A stretch of 64,000 nt of DNA. Source: a virus. Below the pieces are notes generated by a model. That model did no database searches, was not told the origin of the DNA, and was given only the letters and a program-made list of their open reading frames with translations. The translations under genes were made by a program, and so were the position numbers. Where the stretch lies: IMG/VR virus record IMGVR_UViG_3300007609_000005, positions 32,001 to 96,000 of that record, one strand, 5' to 3'. Shown piece by piece: positions 1-64,000 of this stretch. How positions within the stretch are numbered: position 1 is the first letter of the stretch; each line of letters begins with the position of its first letter.

Positions 1-1442
1 TTTAAATTAGGTTCGTGACCCAATTTAAGACCAATAGCAGCCATAAGATTGACCACCTCCTTATTTGATACAAACTTATCATTTGATATATCAGTAACAT
101 TCATAAATTTACCCTTCAATGGAAATGCACCCATTAATTCAGGTGTTCTGTATTTTCGGAAAGCACTAGTGGCTGAATCACCCTCAAATATTCCCAATTG
201 ACACTTCCACCGGGTCTTTCCTTTGGCATCGATCAACTTATCAACTTTTTTACTCGATAAAGACTTATTCAATTTTCTTTTTTTCCTCATCTCATCGGCA
301 AGTTCTTTCTGTTTTACCCAATCAAGTATAGAACTTACAATCTCAGACTTAAGTACTTGTTGAATGAATTTTTTAGATACTGTGTGAGTTGTTTTAAACT
401 CCTTCTGTTCAGTTATCAATTTATCCTTTGTCTGTGATTGGAAAAATGGATTAATGACCGTACAGTTAAGGTAAAGTGCCATATGATTCTTTATATTGGA
501 AGGTTTCACATCAACCTTGTGTTTTTTCTGAAAATATTCCCTCAATTCCTTCACAACTTGGTCTATTATGAAATCAACATGTGTTCCACCATCACTTGTT
601 TCAGTAGTATTCACAAAACTTATATGTTCAAACCCATTTTCGGATGGTGATAATGCAATTGTCCAATCTTTTGATGACTCACTTATATAATCTGTTGTAA
701 ACATCTCTATATAATCTTCAAATTTCTTGAAATCTATTTTCTTGCCATTGAAAGTAACATTCAATTTAGGATTACATGCTGCCACCTCATAACATCTCTT
801 CTCAATCATTGCAAAATGGTTGAGATCTATTTTTCTCATACCAAATTGTTTAAAATCCGGTACGTATGATATCTCAGTATGCTTCCTTGTGAATTTTGTT
901 ATTTTCGCCTTTGTTCTTTTCTTCATATTACTATTGAAAGTTTGAACAAATTTCTTTTTACCATCACTACTCGATACTTTGAATTCTGTTGAAAATATGT
1001 TAGTTAATTTTGCACCTAACCCATTCAATCCAGCAACATCCCTATCCTCTGCATCATCATAATTTGAACCAGAACGTAGAGAGCCGAATATCATCTCAGG
1101 TACATACTTCTTCTCAACCTTATGCATCACAATAGGTATCCCACCATTATCTTTAATGGTTATACGCCCAGTATCTCTATCTACCTTCACATCCAACTTA
1201 TTCAACCTCCCATTCCTCTTATGTTCATCTACCGAATTGGTTATTACCTCATCAAATATCTTTAAGAAAGATGGTATATAAGTAATATCCCTTTTGGACA
1301 TTTTATTGCCATTTTTAACCAACCATTTGGTTTCTGTATGTTTCTTGTTTGAACCCACATATGTCTGTGGCCTTTTCAATACGTGGTCGATCTCATCCAG
1401 TGATTGAAATTCTTCTTCGATTGTCTTCTTTCTCCTTGCCAT
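1..1442 (-). CDS. Type IIA DNA topoisomerase large (ATPase/TOPRIM) subunit, GyrB/T4 gp39-gp60-like; runs off window start
   Basis: Manual translation from ATG at 1442: MARRKKTIEEEFQSLDEIDHVLKRPQTYVGS, GHKL motif GLNGLGAKLTNIFS, TOPRIM motifs IFEGDSA and FPLKGKFMNV. Absent from the ORF track because its stop is outside the window. Confidence 0.93.
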   Translation of the reverse strand, partial: MARRKKTIEEEFQSLDEIDHVLKRPQTYVGSNKKHTETKWLVKNGNKMSKRDITYIPSFLKIFDEVITNSVDEHKRNGRLNKLDVKVDRDTGRITIKDNGGIPIVMHKVEKKYVPEMIFGSLRSGSNYDDAEDRDVAGLNGLGAKLTNIFSTEFKVSSSDGKKKFVQTFNSNMKKRTKAKITKFTRKHTEISYVPDFKQFGMRKIDLNHFAMIEKRCYEVAACNPKLNVTFNGKKIDFKKFEDYIEMFTTDYISESSKDWTIALSPSENGFEHISFVNTTETSDGGTHVDFIIDQVVKELREYFQKKHKVDVKPSNIKNHMALYLNCTVINPFFQSQTKDKLITEQKEFKTTHTVSKKFIQQVLKSEIVSSILDWVKQKELADEMRKKRKLNKSLSSKKVDKLIDAKGKTRWKCQLGIFEGDSATSAFRKYRTPELMGAFPLKGKFMNVTDISNDKFVSNKEVVNLMAAIGLKLGHEPNL

Positions 1443-1521
1443 CCATATTAACTTGATTTGATTTATATATACAATCAATGAGTCTTTCACGAATTATTAG
1501 GAATTCAAAATCAATATAATA

Positions 1522-1889
1522 TCAATTGTACTTTTCTTTATACATTGATTTCAGTTTATCTAAACGGGCTTCAAGTCTTTTAAATTTCGGTTCTTCTGCA
1601 GCCTGCTCCATTTCATCATCAGAATCATCATATTTATATAACAGGTCTTCTAATTTTTTTCCAATCGTTCAATTTCACCCTTATCTTTGATCTGTTGTTC
1701 AGTCATCTTATTTGATGATGATATATTCTTTAGACTACTTTCTAATTTAGATATGTCAGTATATGTTCCAGTTTTTGTACTTGGTTTCATTTTATCCAAT
1801 AATGATTCAAGTAATGATTTCATCATATTATATGCCTCATTACCATCATACTTATTGTTCTCGTTAAATTCTATCCAATTATCAATAAT
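1522..1889 (-). pseudogene. Frameshifted small gene with the N-terminal virion-targeting-like peptide (IIDNWIEFNE)
   Basis: Behind a TATATA element. The frame runs from ATT (1889) to TAG (1650-1652) through an A7 run (plus-strand T 1654-1660). One extra A continues it as KKLEDLLYKYDD...KEKYN to TGA at 1522. Confidence 0.55.
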
Positions 1890-1975
1890 ATACTATATAT
1901 TAATATAAATAAGATGCAAAGTACTATGTTATATATAACAAAAAACATAGATAATGTTTCACAATAGATAATATA

Positions 1976-3322
1976 ATGCATATGGAAAAGAAAAATATCG
2001 AAAACTTCCTCAATGAAGAATATAAAGAATTTGCAATGTATTCCCTGGAATCAAGGGCAATTGCATCAATGATCGATGGATTTAAACCGGTTCAAAGAAA
2101 AATCATCCACATATCATCCAATATATGGAAAACTGGAAATGAAAAAACACTTAGAGTGTTTCAATTGTCCGGTAAAGTTGCAAGTGATTCATTCTACCAC
2201 CATGGAGATAAATCACTGAATGATGCCATTATCAATATGGCACAAAGTTTTAAGAACAATGCACCATTATTGGACGAAGATGGACAATTTGGATCACTTA
2301 GATCCCCCGAATCAGGTGCACCACGATATATAGGGACTCGTTTAAATTCGAGTTTTAGAAAAATATACAAAGATTTCAACTTACTTGAAAATCAAATAGA
2401 AGAAGGAGAAATGATAGAACCTAAATTCCTTCTACCTATAATCCCAATGCTACTTATAAATGGTGGCGGTGGTATTGCAGTAGGATTCCGATCCGAAATA
2501 CTCAATAGAGATGTTAAAACAGTAGCAAGGGAATGTCTCAGATTCTTAAAATCCAATAGGGTCAATAAAATACCACCCCACTTAAATGGATTCAAAGGAA
2601 CTTATAGACAAGATGATGACAATCCCAATAAGTGGTGGGTAAAGGGTGTTTTCGAACGTGTTAATACGACAACAGTTAAAATAACAGAACTCCCACCATC
2701 TATAACATATCAGAATTATGAAGACCACCTCGAAAAATTGATTGAAAACGATGCAATAAAATCATATGAAGATAATTGCCGAGATGATGTTAATTATGTT
2801 ATCAAAATGAGTAGAAAAGACCTGAAAGAAATAACTGATGATAAATTGGTAAAGTTACTGAAGTTGGAAGAAACTCAATATGAATATCTAAATGTTTTGG
2901 ATGAAAATGGGAAACTGAAAACATTCACAGATGTTAAAGATATACTCAAATATTTTGTGAAATTCAGATTGAAATGGTATGATATCCGTAAGAAAACAAT
3001 CCTTGAAAATATGGAGAAAGACCTTAAGGTAATGACCAATAAGGCCAAATTCATATCCCTCATAATAAAAGGCGATATACTTATAAATAACATCAAAAAG
3101 ACAGACATTGAAAAATCAATTGCCAAATATAAATTAGATAAGGTATTGGGTTCTTACAATTACCTTTTTAAGATACCAATCCATAACCTCACCAAAGAAA
3201 ACTATGAAAAGATACAGAATGATATGAAAGCATCCAAGAAAGACATATCATATCTCAAAAAGGTGAAACCCAAGGATATGTATATCGATGAATTGGAAGA
3301 TTTTATAAAGAAATGGAAATAA
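1976..3322 (+). CDS. Type IIA DNA topoisomerase DNA-cleavage subunit, T4 gp52/GyrA-like
   Basis: DGFKPVQRK, YHHGD, GQFGS, catalytic APRY, GIAVG. 448 aa with no beta-pinwheel CTD, like gp52. Confidence 0.93.
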   Translation: MHMEKKNIENFLNEEYKEFAMYSLESRAIASMIDGFKPVQRKIIHISSNIWKTGNEKTLRVFQLSGKVASDSFYHHGDKSLNDAIINMAQSFKNNAPLLDEDGQFGSLRSPESGAPRYIGTRLNSSFRKIYKDFNLLENQIEEGEMIEPKFLLPIIPMLLINGGGGIAVGFRSEILNRDVKTVARECLRFLKSNRVNKIPPHLNGFKGTYRQDDDNPNKWWVKGVFERVNTTTVKITELPPSITYQNYEDHLEKLIENDAIKSYEDNCRDDVNYVIKMSRKDLKEITDDKLVKLLKLEETQYEYLNVLDENGKLKTFTDVKDILKYFVKFRLKWYDIRKKTILENMEKDLKVMTNKAKFISLIIKGDILINNIKKTDIEKSIAKYKLDKVLGSYNYLFKIPIHNLTKENYEKIQNDMKASKKDISYLKKVKPKDMYIDELEDFIKKWK

Positions 3323-7288: not shown

Positions 7289-8968
7289 CTATACACACAA
7301 ATTATATTTTAACTTACCACAATCCCATATACGTTCAATTTTATTACTTTGCATATATGATTTTTCAGATTCTTTTTCGGAAATACTCTCTAATTTATCC
7401 CTTTGAAAACTTCTTTTATTGACCCTACTACCATTAACAATATATTTATAGTCCGGACCACTACTTTTCACCCTCTCAAATCCAAGTTTTTCATATAGAT
7501 TGCCTTCACTCCAACACCTATCTGCATAACTGATTATACGGGTTGCATTATATTCCCTTATAAACCATTTCAACAATTTCCCGGCACCACCAATAACATT
7601 CGTGTTCAATTTGTTACAGAACCTCGAAAGATTCCATTCACCATCATCCATCTTCACCCTCCCCTCGAATTTATTGAATGTCATTACTGCCACAAGTTCA
7701 TCATTGTATAAAAGACCAATATAAACAGAACTTCTATCATTCCCTTGTATATGATTTTCCTTTAAAAACTCAGAACACCGTCTAGTACTTAATTTAACAA
7801 CTTCACATTTCCGTGCCCCTATTTTCGTATCACTTATAGATAATATACTTGATATCTGACTCTTTATGATTGAACCTCTTTCAACCCAATCATCTTCCCA
7901 TATATGTATGATACGTATACCTTTATCATTGAAATATGATGTTTTATCAATGTGGTAGTTTTTATACTTATATTTCTCAGAATGCCAATAAAGCCCATTG
8001 AATTCAAAGCCTATTTTCAACTCCGGTAAGTAAATATCAATTTCCAAACCATCTCGATAAGACCTCACCACTTCACCATTATATATTGAATTGATGTATT
8101 CATATAACTCACCCTCCTTAATAGAAGTGGAATCCGATATTGGATTACAAACAGTACATAGGTTTACATTTGATTTTTTCCGATTATAGTACATATATGA
8201 TGATATCTCAAAATTATGATCACAACCTTTATCACAATTGAATTCTGAAATATTGTCACCAACATATCCAATGTAATTTTCATCATTTGATAAATGGACA
8301 CTATGACCTCTTATAGATTCAGAAGAATATGGCGAAGTTGAACCATATCTATCTAACATTGTTTTCTTAATTTTTTCTCTAACACCTGGGTCAGATAAAC
8401 TGGACCAATATCCCGTCTTATCATAATATGTTTTGGATATCCTATCATATATTTCTGGAACCTTTGATGGGTGATCCACCCCATACTTCTCCAAAAATGA
8501 ATTTCTTATCATTTCTTTATCATGGAATGGATTTTTAAATCCAAACTTCTCCATATTGGTTTTGGACTTACGTTCTTTATATTCATCCGTTTTAGAATAA
8601 TGATCCACCCCATATCTATCTAAGTTGGTTTCCTTAACTCGGTCTTTATATTGATTGGTCTTCGAATAATGATCCACCCCATATTTTTGAGAATTAGTTA
8701 CTTTATTCTTAACACTAGAACATTTAACACAAGTGTAAATAGGCAGTTCCTCACAAGAATTCACATTCTTGTTATAAGACTGATATGTTATGATATTCTC
8801 AGAAAAACAAACATCACAAGACACTTTAACCTTTTTATTACTCTTTTTCTGAAGATGTATAATATCAATATCTATCACATCGCCACATTCTATACCAACA
8901 TAATATTCACTGAAATGATCAATATTCCTCTTACTTATCTTAACCTTTATTGATTTATCTACTAACAT
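7289..8968 (-). CDS. Free-standing homing-endonuclease-like protein (Zn ribbon, KYGVDH repeats, PD-(D/E)XK/Vsr-like domain, C-terminal GNAT-like domain)
   Basis: Repeats KYGVDHYSK/RYGVDHYSK/KYGVDHPSK; EIDIYLPELKIGFEFNGLYWH; IHIWEDDW; ISYADRCWSEGNLY. Confidence 0.75.
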   Translation of the reverse strand: MLVDKSIKVKISKRNIDHFSEYYVGIECGDVIDIDIIHLQKKSNKKVKVSCDVCFSENIITYQSYNKNVNSCEELPIYTCVKCSSVKNKVTNSQKYGVDHYSKTNQYKDRVKETNLDRYGVDHYSKTDEYKERKSKTNMEKFGFKNPFHDKEMIRNSFLEKYGVDHPSKVPEIYDRISKTYYDKTGYWSSLSDPGVREKIKKTMLDRYGSTSPYSSESIRGHSVHLSNDENYIGYVGDNISEFNCDKGCDHNFEISSYMYYNRKKSNVNLCTVCNPISDSTSIKEGELYEYINSIYNGEVVRSYRDGLEIDIYLPELKIGFEFNGLYWHSEKYKYKNYHIDKTSYFNDKGIRIIHIWEDDWVERGSIIKSQISSILSISDTKIGARKCEVVKLSTRRCSEFLKENHIQGNDRSSVYIGLLYNDELVAVMTFNKFEGRVKMDDGEWNLSRFCNKLNTNVIGGAGKLLKWFIREYNATRIISYADRCWSEGNLYEKLGFERVKSSGPDYKYIVNGSRVNKRSFQRDKLESISEKESEKSYMQSNKIERIWDCGKLKYNLCV

Positions 8969-9036
8969 AACCTATATATTACAATTAAATTCTTCTTATT
9001 ATGGTAATTTTTTGTTGTTTGTTTAAAAAAAAGCAT

Positions 9037-9044
9037 TATCTTTG
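9037..9044 (+). promoter_or_regulatory. Bacteroidota housekeeping-sigma -7 element TAnnTTTG (representative)
   Basis: Same motif upstream of genes at 3338, 4757, 21283, 23459, 24907, 28570, 35575, 38889, 39244, 41431, 44217, 49348, 53324 and 63023 (minus). Confidence 0.75.
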
Positions 9045-9077
9045 TAAAACAAATCTTAAACATATAATAAAATTAAC

Positions 9078-10652
9078 ATGATTATAAACAAGAACATACA
9101 CGAAAAACTCCTTACGTCAATCCAAGAAATGTTGATCGATACGAAAGTTAATCTACCATACTATGGTGAATTTAACTTATTGGTGAACTTTCACGAGTCC
9201 AATAACCTTCCAACATGTGGTGTAAATGTTACATCAAAGGGGATGAACTTCTACTACAATCCGAAGTTCCTACAACACATGTCCCAAAAAGAAGTGAACT
9301 TCGTAACACTACACGAAGATTTCCACTTACTTTTCAATCACCCACGTAGAACAATCACGGGTCAATATAATCACAAATTGTCGAATATTGCACAAGATAT
9401 GATTATCAACTACATCATTTGGGACGATATCTCTCACAATTTTGTAGAAATTCCAAAGGATGAGAATGGTAAGAATATGGCACTGTTCCCACCAAAGGAA
9501 TACAAAGGTAAATTGATCTATGAAGAAGTCTATACTTGGTTGAAAGACGAAAAAGAAAAGTGGGACGAAGAACAGAAGAAAAACTCCGGTGATGGTGATT
9601 GCCAAACATGTAACGGCTCTGGTCAAAAACAAGACCAAAATGATCAAGGTCAAAGTGATGGTCAAGGTCAAGACCAAGGCCAAGGTCAAGGTGATGGTCA
9701 AGGTGATGGTCAAGGTGATGGAGAAGGTCAAGACCAAGGTCAAGGTCAAGGTGATGGTCAAGGTGATGGAGAAGGTCAAGGTCAAGGTGATGGTCAAGGT
9801 GATGGACACAATCACGGTCAATCAGGCGAACCTTGCCCAGATTGTAATGGCACGGGTAACCAAAATGGTATGGATTCATCTGGTAAGCCATCTTATGGTC
9901 CATATGGACAAAACCCATCCGGAGATGGTTCTATTGATACATGGTCAAAAGAACAGATCTTTAAGGACATGGATCAGAATGATGGACAATATATGGATTC
10001 CCACATCACCGATGATGTTCCTGAGGACATGAGAGAAACAATGGTACGAGATGCCATGGAAAGATTGGCTGCACGAGGACTTGCATCAGGTAATATTGAA
10101 ACAACTCTGAATAAACTTCAGAAGAAACGAAAAGATTACTTGAAAGAAATCAAACGTTCAATCTCAAATGAGATCTTCGGTACTAAAAAACAAAAGACTA
10201 TTACTCGAATCAATCGTAGAGGTATCAAAGGTCTTAAAGGTAACCGAAAGACCAAGACAACAATCAACGTTATTCTTGATACATCCGGTTCTATGGGTGG
10301 TCAAGGGACATTTGAAAGAGTTCTGTCGTATGTTTATAGGAACGACATTGAAATAAACTTCATCCAAGGTGATACTGATGTGAAGTGGGTTGAGAAGTTC
10401 AAGAAGAAACGTCAATTGGAAACAATGAAAATCCGAGGTCTTGGTGGCACTGTGCTCCAACCTAGCGTGGATTACTGTGTCGAACACTATAATGAGTACA
10501 ATACTTGTATACTTACGGATGGTTACACAGATACTCTTGACCTCTCTAAGTTGAATGGACGAGTTCTAATGATTTCTGTTGGTGTTGAAGTACCAACTAG
10601 CCGACCACCAAAGAAAGGTGTGAAGCAAATCGTACTTGAAGAAACTCACTAA
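9078..10652 (+). CDS. Metallopeptidase-like/VWA-domain protein (DUF2201 type), probable MoxR ATPase partner
   Basis: HEDFH (HExxH), MIDAS DTSGS, GGT and TDG motifs, Gly/Gln/Asp linker. Confidence 0.85.
   Translation: MIINKNIHEKLLTSIQEMLIDTKVNLPYYGEFNLLVNFHESNNLPTCGVNVTSKGMNFYYNPKFLQHMSQKEVNFVTLHEDFHLLFNHPRRTITGQYNHKLSNIAQDMIINYIIWDDISHNFVEIPKDENGKNMALFPPKEYKGKLIYEEVYTWLKDEKEKWDEEQKKNSGDGDCQTCNGSGQKQDQNDQGQSDGQGQDQGQGQGDGQGDGQGDGEGQDQGQGQGDGQGDGEGQGQGDGQGDGHNHGQSGEPCPDCNGTGNQNGMDSSGKPSYGPYGQNPSGDGSIDTWSKEQIFKDMDQNDGQYMDSHITDDVPEDMRETMVRDAMERLAARGLASGNIETTLNKLQKKRKDYLKEIKRSISNEIFGTKKQKTITRINRRGIKGLKGNRKTKTTINVILDTSGSMGGQGTFERVLSYVYRNDIEINFIQGDTDVKWVEKFKKKRQLETMKIRGLGGTVLQPSVDYCVEHYNEYNTCILTDGYTDTLDLSKLNGRVLMISVGVEVPTSRPPKKGVKQIVLEETH
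9645..9805 (+). repeat. Coding tandem repeat (GGTCAAGGTGAT-type units) encoding GQGD/GQGQ
   Basis: Visible imperfect 6/12-bp tandem repeats. Confidence 0.85.
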
Positions 10653-36037: not shown

Positions 36038-37366
36038 ATGAAAACTAAAAAATATTTAATAGATACTCCACCTGCAACAATTTCAGGTAAATTGCACATA
36101 GGACATCTGTTCTCTTATACACAGGCAGATATTATCGCCCGATACCATAGATACAAAGGCGATGAACTGATATATCCTTGGTGCTTCGATAACAATGGGT
36201 TACCTACATATAAATTGGCAAACAATCGAAAGATTAAAGGTCATGACAACATACTCAACTTCTCAATCGAACGTTCTAATGAGTACATAGACACATTCAA
36301 TAATGCAGGTATAGAGTTCGGAAATACCGAGTACCACACATTTTCTGAATCATCCATAGATATTGCATATAAGGCATTCGAGTTACTGAAGTCAAAGGGT
36401 ATAATCTATAAAAAGGAAACTGAATTCATGTGGTGTCCTAAACAAAAATGTTCCATATCACAATCTGAACTGGGTGATGATGGTAGAATAGAACGTAGTG
36501 GTGAATTTCCAGAGATAAAGACGGGGTGGGGCTGGTTCATAGACATCAAGAACCATATTCCACAGATAAAGGAAAAAATAGAGGAAATAGATTGGAAGCC
36601 TGAGAGGTTTAAACAGAATGCACTAAATTGGGCAGATAACATTGAATGGGATTGGTCCATATCAAGAGAACGGTATTATGGTATTCCGATACCAGGTGAA
36701 GAAAGAATGACATTTGACACTTGGTTCATCTCTTCCCTATCGCCACAACTGGCTTGGAACTCATATACGGGTGATACTAGCCTAGATATCCCTATATTTG
36801 ATATGAGATACCAAGGACATGATATTATTCGAACATGGGCTTTCTATACGATTGCAATGTCATATTTTTTAAACAATCAAATACCTTGGAAGACACTTAT
36901 GATAACAGGACATACACTTGATGGTAAGGGAGATAAGTTCTCCAAGTCATCTGGAAATGCCACTGATCCAAGACCATATATCGATAGACACAAACCATCA
37001 GGAATAAGATGGTGGGCATGTTCAACAACCTTGGGGAATGATATAAAACTAGATGAGCCAAAGATGAAAATGGGTTGGCGTATTGAGAACAAACTTCTAA
37101 ACGCCAAGAAATTCATAAAAATGCAAATAGATAATGAGTGGATAGGTGAAGATGAAAGCCTTATGACGGAATATTTAGACCATAAGGATCGGATACTTGA
37201 ACATTTCGAAAATTATGAACTGGATAAGGCAACTGATCACATATACACATTCTTTTGGAATATATTCTGTGATAAGTGGATAGAGGCATCCAAGAAAAAC
37301 CCAACTTCAATAACATTGAATAATATAATTACTGACTTCGAAAAAATAATGAATATCATATTATGA
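36038..37366 (+). CDS. valS: Minimal valyl-tRNA synthetase lacking CP1 editing domain
   Basis: DTPPATISGKLHIGH, WDWSISRERYYGIPIP, FDTWF, QGHDIIRTW, KFSKS; 442 aa. Confidence 0.88.
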   Translation: MKTKKYLIDTPPATISGKLHIGHLFSYTQADIIARYHRYKGDELIYPWCFDNNGLPTYKLANNRKIKGHDNILNFSIERSNEYIDTFNNAGIEFGNTEYHTFSESSIDIAYKAFELLKSKGIIYKKETEFMWCPKQKCSISQSELGDDGRIERSGEFPEIKTGWGWFIDIKNHIPQIKEKIEEIDWKPERFKQNALNWADNIEWDWSISRERYYGIPIPGEERMTFDTWFISSLSPQLAWNSYTGDTSLDIPIFDMRYQGHDIIRTWAFYTIAMSYFLNNQIPWKTLMITGHTLDGKGDKFSKSSGNATDPRPYIDRHKPSGIRWWACSTTLGNDIKLDEPKMKMGWRIENKLLNAKKFIKMQIDNEWIGEDESLMTEYLDHKDRILEHFENYELDKATDHIYTFFWNIFCDKWIEASKKNPTSITLNNIITDFEKIMNIIL

Positions 37367-41442: not shown

Positions 41443-42723
41443 ATGTCAAAGAATAAAAAGTATATTAATGTGATGTTCCCATACCCAAGTGGTTCAGGCC
41501 TTCACATCGGACATGTTTATAATTATGCAATAATGGATTCCTATTCCAGGTATTGGCGGTATAGAGGATATGATGTATTTCAACCATTCGGATTTGACTC
41601 ATTCGGACTTCCTGCCGAAAATTATGCCAAAAAAGTTGGAAGGAAGCCAAGTGAAGTCACATATGAGAATATTGAAAACTTCAGAAAACAAATGAGAGAC
41701 ATGAATACTGAATATACTGAGTTGCTAACGACTTCGGATGTTTCATATTATAAATGGACACAGTGGATATTCAGTAAGTTGAGAGAACATGGTTTGGCAT
41801 ACAAAAAAGATGGTGAAGTGAATTGGTGTACATCGTGTGAAACTGTCTTGGCAAGAGAACAAGTTAAAGATGGTGTGTGTAAAAGGTGTAGTTCTACCGT
41901 GGAAGAGAAGGTAATGAACCAATGGTATTTCAAGATAACCGATTACAAGGACAGGTTGATCAAAAATTTGGATCACATCGACTACCCACAATCAACTATC
42001 AATGCACAAAGAAATTGGTTGGAGAATTTGCACGATTGGTGTGTTTCAAGACAAAGAAGTTGGGGATGTCCAATTCCCGTTGAAAATGAAACAGACACAT
42101 TGGATACATTTGTCGATTCATCTTTCTATTTTGTTCGATATTGTGACCCATTCAATGATGAAGAATTGTGTTCAAGAGATAAATACCAACAAGTCGATAT
42201 GTATGTTGGTGGAAGTGAACACGCCTGTATGCACTTGATATATGCCAGGTTCATTCATATGTTCTTGTACGATATTGGTGTTGTCCCGGTCGAAGAACCA
42301 TTCAAAAGTGTAAGACACCAAGGTATGATATTGAATGATGGTGAAAAGATGTCAAAGTCAAAAGGAAATACAATAAATCCCGATGATTACGACCCAGATG
42401 AGTTGAGAATGTACTTGATGTTCATTGGCCACTATTTCGATGGTGGTTCGTGGTCAGATAAGAATATAAAGGGAATTAGACGATTCATCGGCAGGTTTAA
42501 GGAATGGATGTCGAGAGAAGGTGATCATGTTATTGACATCGAACCATTCAAAGAGAAAGTTTTCAATTATACGGAATCTTTCAAATTCAACAAAGTTGTT
42601 TCTGAGTATATGACATTGGTGAATAAGAATAGAAAATACAACATAACCCCTGAAGTTAAAAAAGAATTGACCAATATTTTGAAAATATATATCCCCGGTT
42701 TAGAATTGGGTGATGGTGATTAA
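41443..42723 (+). CDS. leuS: Minimal leucyl-tRNA synthetase lacking CP1 editing domain
   Basis: MFPYPSGSGLHIGH, GFDSFGLPAEN, DWCVSRQRSWGCPIP, DTFVDSS, YVGGSEHA, KMSKS; 426 aa. Confidence 0.92.
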   Translation: MSKNKKYINVMFPYPSGSGLHIGHVYNYAIMDSYSRYWRYRGYDVFQPFGFDSFGLPAENYAKKVGRKPSEVTYENIENFRKQMRDMNTEYTELLTTSDVSYYKWTQWIFSKLREHGLAYKKDGEVNWCTSCETVLAREQVKDGVCKRCSSTVEEKVMNQWYFKITDYKDRLIKNLDHIDYPQSTINAQRNWLENLHDWCVSRQRSWGCPIPVENETDTLDTFVDSSFYFVRYCDPFNDEELCSRDKYQQVDMYVGGSEHACMHLIYARFIHMFLYDIGVVPVEEPFKSVRHQGMILNDGEKMSKSKGNTINPDDYDPDELRMYLMFIGHYFDGGSWSDKNIKGIRRFIGRFKEWMSREGDHVIDIEPFKEKVFNYTESFKFNKVVSEYMTLVNKNRKYNITPEVKKELTNILKIYIPGLELGDGD

Positions 42724-63054: not shown

Positions 63055-64000
63055 CTATAATTCCAACATAAAAACACTCCCTTCTTCTTTGAATAAATAG
63101 TTCTGATATGCATCTTCTGCCAGAAATGGTGTCATTGGTGCTAAGACTCTCAACATCTTATCTACACAATTCTTCAAAACATATTGACAATTCCGCCTCT
63201 CATTACTATCAAGATCATATTCATATAGGAATGATTTTGTTGCATCGTCAAGGTAGAAACTCGACAACTCAGATACCCATGTAACCAATTCTCTTAGTAC
63301 GAATTTAAATTCATACTCTTCATAATATTTCATAGAATCAACATACATTTTATTTGTCATATCCAATACTTTCTTACCTCTATCAGATAAGTCGAGTGTA
63401 TGGTCAACATCATAGCCATACATATTACCTAATAAGTATTTCATTGTATTTCGTAACTTGAAGTAATAACTAGCACATGTCTTTAATACATCATCACCGA
63501 GTGTTACATCATTCCCATAACTTGTCTGCGCCACCCACAACCTCAACACATCAGTATTGAACTTATCTTGTACATCTTTTGGATCAACAACATTCTTCAT
63601 TGATTTACTCATCTTATGACCATTTTGATCAAGAACAAACCCATGTGTAAGAACCTTTTTATAAGGGGCTTTACCCATCGATGCAACAGATGTTAAGAGA
63701 GATGATTGGTACCACCCTCTGAACTGATCAGAGCCTTCGAGGTAGAGGTCTGAAACTTTACCATCCATAACAGACAACCAAGACGACCCAGAGTCAAACC
63801 ACACATCCAACGTATAAGTACATTTTTCCAACCCCATATTATGAAATTCAGTTGGTAGGAGTTCTTTATCTGTCATAGAAAACCACACATCTGAACCAAG
63901 TTCATTAAATAACTTATATAGATGTTTGTAAACTTTATCATCAGTGAATGGGTTTCCGTCTTTTAAGAAAACTGCCAACGGAAACCCCCATTGTCTTTGC
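63055..64000 (-). CDS. ileS: Isoleucyl-tRNA synthetase, C-terminal part (5' end outside window)
   Basis: QRQWGFP, LDVWFDSG, EGSDQFRGW, THGF, KMSKS, RNTMKYLLGN; ends without a C-terminal zinc finger. Confidence 0.92.
   Translation of the reverse strand, partial: QRQWGFPLAVFLKDGNPFTDDKVYKHLYKLFNELGSDVWFSMTDKELLPTEFHNMGLEKCTYTLDVWFDSGSSWLSVMDGKVSDLYLEGSDQFRGWYQSSLLTSVASMGKAPYKKVLTHGFVLDQNGHKMSKSMKNVVDPKDVQDKFNTDVLRLWVAQTSYGNDVTLGDDVLKTCASYYFKLRNTMKYLLGNMYGYDVDHTLDLSDRGKKVLDMTNKMYVDSMKYYEEYEFKFVLRELVTWVSELSSFYLDDATKSFLYEYDLDSNERRNCQYVLKNCVDKMLRVLAPMTPFLAEDAYQNYLFKEEGSVFMLEL

Follow-up and report, generated by a model that had tools for sequence, protein, structure and literature searches.

Bacterial-type leucyl-tRNA synthetase (LeuRS) without the CP1 editing domain is known from Mycoplasma mobile, whose 637-residue enzyme (PDB 3ZIU) is described as charging tRNA-Leu without CP1 or the leucine-specific domain and as mischarging Ile; it is called minimal in its own literature and still has the C-terminal domain (PMC3643597). 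Engineered deletions of CP1 or the C-terminal domain, and the LeuAC urzymes, are reported to leave a core that keeps activation and some acylation in the absence of CP1 and the anticodon-binding domain (10.1101/2025.04.05.647346, PMC9026127). Individual huge phages reportedly encode as many as 15 synthetases and 67 tRNAs, and the synthetases were suggested to charge the phages' own tRNA variants (PMC7162821). Here, we describe mini-LeuRS, a LeuRS of 426 residues encoded by the gene mini-leuS in a 64,000-nucleotide stretch of viral DNA (the window), which comprises bases 32001-96000 of the 132,459-bp IMG/VR virus record IMGVR_UViG_3300007609_000005 (G+C about 32%; 52% complete by CheckV estimate). 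Mini-LeuRS is an intact bacterial-type LeuRS with the HIGH, KMSKS and zinc (ZN) motifs and the leucine-pocket positions, and its gene is that of a huge soil phage. It is a member of a family conserved among huge phages, one branch of which occurs in cultured Microvirga.

The M. mobile LeuRS is the only one of its organism, whereas the phage enzyme is an extra one. The urzymes have about 130 residues and the deletion variants are laboratory mutants, whereas mini-LeuRS is natural and conserved and has the ZN motif, the stem-contact fold and the helical bundle. A CP1-less LeuRS is known from M. mobile; the further loss of the insert behind CP1 and of the C-terminal domain, the codon habit and the company of tRNA-Leu genes appear to be new, as do the members using CTG, the Microvirga paralogues, a possible intermediate of 530 residues, the counts of tRNA-Leu adjacency and the mapping of the ZN motif. 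In a literature search, nothing was found on phage synthetases stripped of domains, on tRNA-Leu of phages with a short arm or on synthetases free of their cognate amino acid; the supplements of PMC7162821 may list such genes, and its passages on huge-phage synthetases are general and silent on domain loss, cognate-free composition and single-codon use.

Architecture and family of mini-LeuRS

Among the NCBIfam models, mini-LeuRS matched TIGR00396 (leuS_bact) best, with 417.6 bits against 149, 140 and 139 bits for the ValRS, IleRS and MetRS models respectively, a lead of about 270 bits over the other families. The match falls into four stretches because domains are missing. The best PDB matches by sequence were all LeuRSs, led by those of M. 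mobile (3ziu, 7.5e-89) and Thermus thermophilus (1h3n, 4.4e-86). The AlphaFold2 model, computed from a 49-row alignment, had a mean predicted local distance difference test score (pLDDT) of 93.8 and a predicted template modelling score (pTM) of 0.91. Foldseek ranked M. mobile 3ziu first with a template modelling (TM) score of 0.90 normalised to the query, and VIA-align superposed 421 of the 426 residues on T. thermophilus LeuRS (Tth, 1obc) with a Z score of 38.8 and a root-mean-square deviation of 2.0 Å. The chain ranges covered by the model in this program were 28..796 of 878 in Tth, 30..779 in E. coli and 32..556 in M. mobile LeuRS, the last of which extends past this range with the remainder of its bundle and a C-terminal domain.

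In the HMMER alignment with Tth, residues 3-194 of the query correspond to 32-224 and residues 195-213 to 418-436. Since the counterparts of Tth 224 and 418 adjoin in the query, the CP1 domain of about 190 residues (Tth ~225-417) is absent, and the text QSTINAQRNWLENLHDWCVSRQRSWG is present in mini-LeuRS across the point where it would sit. For the domain map, a canonical LeuRS of 835 residues from the representative search (P0128) was used as reference. The query matched its residues 30-224, 451-470, 523-681 and 689-750, while the 29 N-terminal residues, CP1 (225-450), a 52-residue insert (471-522) and the last 85 residues had no counterpart. The last of these pieces comprises the terminal part of the helical domain together with the C-terminal tRNA-binding domain. 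From the map and the superposition, the C-terminal loss, that domain included, amounts to about 80-85 residues. The leucine-specific domain is absent as well, since in 'QGMIL-NDGE-KMSKS' the residue pairing with Tth 578 is followed by one pairing with Tth 637 with only NDGE in between; the corresponding tetrapeptide of M. mobile LeuRS is GKDG (PMC3643597). The insert of about 52 residues lost behind the CP1 hinge (Tth ~437-486) is apparently kept by M. mobile LeuRS, which has about 83 residues there against about 25 in the query.

The helical bundle lacks little more than its very end and has about 35 residues fewer than the part of Tth aligned with it (query 302-426 against Tth 637-796); four helices were assigned to it by DSSP (339-357, 367-378, 382-396 and 403-416). 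Residues M11, F12, Y14, D52, F223, S226, Y229, H260 and H264 align with Tth M40, F41, Y43, D80, F501, S504, Y507, H541 and H545, nine positions which we take to form the leucine pocket, and all nine are invariant or nearly so across the family. HIGH and KMSKS are likewise conserved in the family. The HMMER alignment with the E. coli LeuRS chains is free of gaps in this region, the native E. coli number being the query number plus 30, so that the four cysteines of the ZN motif with E139 and R148 correspond to E. coli 159/162/176/179, Glu169 and Arg178. The published zinc signature of LeuRS lies at 159/162/176/179 in E. coli numbering, and Glu169 and Arg178 are given in the same paper (PMC13454842); the equivalent of Trp177 is Lys in mini-LeuRS.

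A preliminary description of the gene had proposed a LeuRS of 426 residues with intact HIGH and KMSKS motifs, a cleanly excised CP1, and neither a leucine-specific nor a C-terminal tRNA-binding domain. These points were all borne out by the alignments and by superposition of the model on the LeuRS of E. coli and that of T. thermophilus, and the comparison with M. mobile LeuRS was apt, this being the best match both by sequence and by Foldseek. The bundle was called short, which holds for its length relative to Tth and does not hold for its content, as it is kept almost whole. The protein had further been called a natural near-minimal LeuRS; it is one, and it is more reduced than the M. mobile enzyme with which it was then compared. 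The loss of the insert behind CP1 was not part of that description. Further points beyond it are the huge-phage family with its Microvirga branch, the tRNA-Leu neighbours in relatives, the restriction to TTG, the mini-ValRS and the cognate-free synthetases.

The family is under strong purifying selection. In a collection of 5.8 billion proteins, searched with only proteins of 234-746 residues admitted, all 120 clusters listed had 385-472 residues and 69-100% identity; the contigs that carry them reach 779,616 bp, and the identical protein was present on two contigs. A search of 1.84 billion representatives without length limits gave 19,728 relatives, of which the closest were proteins of 429 (66% identical) and 530 residues (58%) and three fragments, followed by ordinary LeuRSs at 41-54%. 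In IMG/VR, 38 loci with 57-80% identity were found, the longest of their contigs having 607,744 bp; intact frames of 410-487 residues were present in 36, and two appeared frameshifted. These two copies (L072 and L074) are cut at 263 and 213 residues with unrelated sequence ahead of the stop, and look like frameshifts or assembly errors. The nearest phage record, LR745206.1 ('uncultured phage', 634,780 bp, unannotated), encodes a protein 79% identical to mini-LeuRS. After six near-duplicate loci and the two broken ones were dropped, the Nei-Gojobori ratio of nonsynonymous to synonymous rates (dN/dS) had a median of 0.13 and a maximum of 0.24 over 76 pairs with 0.05 < dS < 2; all pairs with the window's own gene were saturated at synonymous sites.

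A quick maximum-likelihood tree of 62 rows was built with Shimodaira-Hasegawa-like approximate likelihood-ratio (SH-aLRT) supports only and a midpoint root, and gives no direction of transfer. The mini proteins and the metagenomic 530-residue LeuRS P0123 formed one group (SH-aLRT 100). P0123 shares the short C-terminus and the loss of the insert of about 50 residues and differs in that a reduced CP1 is still present (its 201-315, about 115 residues). It may represent an intermediate form, placed either within the mini clade or next to it. Seven other CP1-less LeuRSs, of 569-706 residues and with the C-terminal domain kept, were scattered among full-length enzymes apart from the mini clade, and CP1 was therefore lost several times, the mini family being a separate case. 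The rows did not include the M. mobile sequence, and the likeness of that enzyme to mini-LeuRS described here is one of sequence, architecture and structure.

A scan of prokaryote genomes, with one genome per species, gave 14 full-length copies. Seven lie on contigs of low G+C (0.27-0.39; one contig of 375 kb) binned with Bacteroidota and other metagenome-assembled genomes (MAGs), with tRNA-Leu adjoining the gene in three; they are most simply read as phage contigs. The other seven are in assemblies of cultured Microvirga (L084, L085, L086, L087, L088, L091 and L097) with a host-like G+C of 0.60-0.63. They encode 420-442 residues, are 60-62% identical to mini-LeuRS and about 90% identical among themselves, and nest within the phage clade beside the copy from a 608-kb phage contig (SH-aLRT 93). 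A canonical LeuRS of 875-876 residues scoring >1030 bits was also present in all three Microvirga genomes checked. In one species, Microvirga sp. CF3016, the gene is surrounded by LysR, luciferase-like, GNAT and MFS genes; no function was drawn from these, since they are not conserved in the six other Microvirga loci.

Leucine codons and tRNA-Leu neighbours

In mini-leuS, 19 of the 23 leucine codons are TTG, compared with 24.5% in the 120 other open reading frames (ORFs) of the contig (binomial P 7.6e-9), and leucine makes up 5.4% of the residues against 7.6%. Among the 38 IMG/VR relatives, TTG accounts for at least 74% of the leucine codons in 21 and for all of them in four, and four use only or almost only TTA and TTG. 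Three are written mainly with CTG instead (19/20, 24/27 and 20/27). The Microvirga copies also use mostly CTG (77-97% of leucine codons, against 43% in neighbouring genes), so the single-codon habit travels with the gene.

The other synthetase genes of the same contig avoid their own amino acid. ValRS (442 residues, ATG at 36038) contains no Val, IleRS (738 residues) no Ile, AsnRS (388 residues) no Asn, and GlnRS (522 residues) a single Gln; the IleRS, GlnRS and AsnRS score above their curated cut-offs. The ValRS is also a mini protein. It covers residues 36-189, 378-414 and 448-656 of the 862 residues of T. thermophilus ValRS, and therefore lacks CP1 and about 200 C-terminal residues, paralleling mini-LeuRS. 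In the records of three relatives, two IleRSs without Ile, three ValRSs without Val and one MetRS with two Met were found. Altogether, the own amino acid was avoided in 10 of the 12 non-LeuRS synthetases examined. The simplest reading of these gene sequences is that synthetase genes may be written to stay translatable when their own aminoacyl-tRNA is scarce; leucine would be too common to remove and is therefore confined to one codon.

Genes needed during starvation reportedly use codons whose tRNAs stay charged, an idea of selective charging ascribed to Elf in 2003 and Dittmar in 2005. It was directed at cellular biosynthetic genes, whereas here the cognate codons of a synthetase gene itself are concerned, in a phage. 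The single-codon spelling fits the selective-charging idea. In E. coli, UUG and UUA were called less variable under leucine starvation (PMC3783181). The literature search returned nothing that applies selective charging to a synthetase's own cognate codons or to phages.

For the tRNA counts, 45 loci of relatives from IMG/VR and the prokaryote-genome scan were reduced by eight near-duplicates to 37 distinct loci. tRNA genes lie within 2.5 kb of leuS in 14 of these, with tRNA-Leu among them in nine of the 14, and tRNA-Leu makes up 37 of the 88 flanking tRNAs within this distance. The nearest tRNA is a tRNA-Leu in six of the 14 loci and Leu(CAA) in four, at a minimum distance of 16 nt. For comparison, Leu accounts for five of the 58 ARAGORN calls in the tRNA regions of LR745206.1. 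The loci share kinship, and the counts are therefore not independent events.

Among 40 tRNA-Leu genes in the relatives' loci, the discriminator base is A in 35, and nine are short, with 74-78 nt, a variable loop of 4-5 nt and no long arm. In LR745206.1, a short tRNA-Leu(UAA) has the acceptor stem (with one difference) and the T arm of the adjoining long tRNA-Leu(UAA). Long-arm and short-arm tRNA-Leu genes of this record lie at 389081-389340. We know of no bacterial tRNA-Leu without a long variable arm. The C-terminal domain of LeuRS was reported to contact the tRNA elbow and the long variable arm (PMC3561953), and it is an attractive idea that an enzyme without this domain may have co-adapted with short-arm tRNA-Leu.

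Function of mini-LeuRS and alternative explanations

We consider it rather probable that mini-LeuRS is an active, editing-free auxiliary LeuRS, which charges tRNA-Leu during infection and whose own synthesis is buffered against a shortage of Leu-tRNA. What is kept, a Rossmann catalytic core bearing the HIGH and KMSKS motifs together with the leucine pocket, the ZN domain, the stem-contact fold and the compact bundle, would provide for leucine activation and transfer to tRNA-Leu, either of the host or phage-encoded. With CP1 lost, post-transfer editing would be gone, which is a fair expectation since the CP1-less M. mobile LeuRS mischarges Ile. Mischarging, a looser tRNA specificity and evasion of host inhibition, all proposed in the preliminary description, may be further traits of the enzyme. 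The leucine-specific domain and the C-terminal domain for elbow and variable arm are lost too, and the grip on the tRNA would therefore rest on the core and the bundle. Like its sibling synthetases, the enzyme would be made when its own product is scarce, its leucines being fewer and mostly spelled with TTG, the codon of a single C34 isoacceptor.

Several points weigh against this account. The whole-protein score lies under the curated TIGR00396 cut-off (417.6 against 548.4 bits), and the catalytic activity of the family is a prediction. Binding and charging of tRNA-Leu by the LeuRS of M. tuberculosis were reported to depend crucially on the C-terminal domain (PMC3561953); M. mobile LeuRS keeps such a domain, whereas mini-LeuRS has none. 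Archaeal LeuRS-I, in which CP1 is disrupted, is described as making leucyl-adenylate and binding tRNA-Leu with no aminoacylation (PMC9437257). There is no tRNA gene in the window and a single tRNA-Met only in the 132-kb contig, so that the synteny with tRNA-Leu rests on the relatives only. The Microvirga paralogues coexist with a normal LeuRS and have no tRNA genes in their vicinity, which would suit a non-translational role too. The codon habit is not uniform either, as 17 of the 38 relatives have less than 74% TTG and ten have no single dominant leucine codon, and two of the 12 other synthetases, one of them IleRS-like (36 Ile) and the other an ArgRS (37 Arg), do not avoid their amino acid.

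The auxiliary enzyme could be part of something narrower, a phage-private leucylation module in which mini-LeuRS serves the phage tRNA-Leu, the short-arm isoacceptors included, though we hold this to be unlikely. The enzyme would then have shed exactly the domain that reads elbow and variable arm, its leucines would be limited to the codon of one C34 tRNA-Leu (CAA mostly, CAG in others) whose gene often adjoins it, and the module could start itself after a collapse of host Leu-tRNA, the wider rule being that synthetases are written without the amino acid they handle. It is unlikely, and less likely than such a module, that mini-LeuRS is an adenylate-forming or tRNA-binding paralogue outside translation, making Leu-AMP or binding tRNA-Leu without charging it. 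For such a role speak the missing C-terminal tRNA-binding and leucine-specific domains, the precedent of LeuRS-I (PMC9437257) and the coexistence of the Microvirga copies with a full LeuRS, one of them among the LysR, luciferase-like, GNAT and MFS genes; yet these neighbours vary between species, tRNA-Leu genes accompany leuS in relatives, the ZN domain, the stem-contact fold and the bundle are strongly selected, and the codon bias parallels that of the bona fide sibling IleRS, GlnRS and AsnRS. A spare LeuRS proof against inhibitors, which would step in for a blocked host LeuRS, overlaps with the auxiliary enzyme and differs in its trigger only. Being without CP1, it would escape compounds that trap tRNA there, and its divergent synthetic site might escape mimics of the aminoacyl-adenylate; a self-immunity LeuRS, AgnB2 of Agrobacterium K84 (5ah5), was among the structural matches, and a GNAT acetyltransferase and an MFS transporter lie near the gene in CF3016. 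This neighbourhood is not kept in the six other Microvirga loci, however, no inhibitor is known for these hosts, and AsnRS, GlnRS, ValRS and IleRS avoid their cognate amino acid as well, which argues for a general scarcity logic over a single drug, and we regard this explanation as quite improbable.

The enzyme might also need a partner in trans, for instance a so far unrecognised protein from phage or host that binds tRNA and stands in for the lost C-terminal domain. This domain matters in other bacterial LeuRSs (PMC3561953), and a split LeuRS exists in Aquifex (PMC3643597). A second subunit with the missing parts and a separate trans-editing CP1 gene had been raised in the preliminary description, and neither was detectable by the searches, which covered LeuRS-homologous proteins and flanking ORFs. 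On the own contig, the LeuRS profile matched three genes only (mini-LeuRS, mini-ValRS and IleRS), and CP1 or C-terminal positions were matched in no frame other than IleRS-like ones; the same held for LR745206.1 and for four IMG/VR relatives rated 97-100% complete by CheckV. Ten flanking ORFs of the window, compared with 39 leuS loci of relatives, did not recur beside leuS save for one ORF in one locus, and no Pfam family was found in the flanking ORFs. A trans partner, conceivably one with no LeuRS homology, has little probability in our estimate, about as little as the inhibitor-proof spare. That the gene is a decaying fragment, as also considered in the preliminary description, or an assembly artefact is excluded for practical purposes. 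The score under the LeuRS cut-off and the two frameshifted-looking copies would fit decay, but the family length is constant, 36 of the 38 copies are intact, the catalytic motifs are invariant, the dN/dS values are low, the model is compact and confident, and the same protein occurs on two contigs.

With 426 residues, mini-LeuRS has the smallest natural LeuRS architecture among those compared here. Should the auxiliary enzyme be active, charging of tRNA-Leu by a bacterial-type LeuRS would require neither CP1 nor the leucine-specific domain nor the C-terminal domain. This would bear on the way in which class Ia synthetases acquired their modules and would offer a compact scaffold for engineering. 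The single-codon leucines and the cognate-free siblings suggest a rule in the design of those translation genes which have to be expressed in the absence of their own product, a rule not found in print by the literature search. The Microvirga paralogues make the question testable in an ordinary bacterium.

Features of the locus and tRNA variants in its relatives

The gene was taken from the ORF list as a 426-codon open frame with an ATG start. Its TAA is followed by several further stops in the same frame, and extension of mini-LeuRS by read-through was ruled out. The intergenic space upstream is only 52 nt and leaves no room for an attenuator leader; no terminator was found, and the promoter scan did no better than shuffles, with 10 hits against 7.9 expected. 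There is no conserved neighbour gene at leuS. An apparent match of LR745206.1 past the stop, up to model position 798, proved to be the following gene, which shares the frame; this gene (L009, 7270 onward) starts with MKHIKRF.

Table 1. Positions of mini-leuS, its motifs and the sibling synthetase genes (window coordinates unless the contig is named)
Feature	Position	Strand	Support or composition
mini-leuS gene, 426 aa	41443..42723	+	TIGR00396; AlphaFold2 pLDDT 93.8; VIA-align Z 38.8
HIGH motif, H21-I-G-H24	41503..41514	+	H21, G23 and H24 invariant in 18 family members
ZN zinc motif, Cys129-X2-Cys132-X13-Cys146-X2-Cys149, with E139 and R148	41827..41889	+	HMMER against E. coli LeuRS chains
CP1-less junction, W192-L-E-N-L-H197	42016..42033	+	query 194 = Tth 224, query 195 = Tth 418
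Junction without the second insert of ~52 residues, P212-V-E-N-E216	42076..42090	+	query 213 = P0128 470, query 214 = P0128 523
Tetrapeptide N298-D-G-E301 replacing the leucine-specific domain	42334..42345	+	query 297 = Tth 578, 302 = Tth 637
KMSKS loop, K302-M-S-K-S306	42346..42360	+	K302, M303 and K305 invariant in family
Stem-contact fold and compact four-helix anticodon-side bundle, family motif FIGHYFDGGSW	42361..42690	+	DSSP; superposition; invariant columns F327-D339
TAA stop	42721..42723	+	further in-frame stops downstream
mini-ValRS, 442 aa	36038-37366	+	0 Val
IleRS, 738 aa, CP1 kept	63055-64000, on to contig 97271	-	TIGR00392 690 bits; 0 Ile
AsnRS, 388 aa	contig 8951-10117	-	0 Asn
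GlnRS, 522 aa	contig 958-2526	+	1 Gln

In the relatives, tRNA genes of unusual length were also observed. tRNA-Ile, Asn, Thr, Met, Lys, Arg, His, Cys, Glu and Asp of 84-91 nt lie next to normal tRNAs, in L042 (6969-9698), L045 (8359-9180) and LR745206.1 (342554-408120, L010-L039). The long tRNAs of L042 (Ile, Asn, Thr and Met) have a stem-loop in the variable region of the ARAGORN fold, and two of them carry nearly identical arms. Conversely, the arm is missing from the tRNA-Leu genes of 74-78 nt and from a single tRNA-Tyr of 73 nt. Judged from these predicted genes, tRNA identity and possession of the long variable arm are not coupled in these huge phages, to which the nematode nev-tRNAs are a distant parallel (PMC3333845). 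Suppressor-type tRNAs were also located near leuS of relatives, one with anticodon CTA (ARAGORN 'Pyl', L043 3525-3597) and one with TTA ('Stop', L089 2525-2605).

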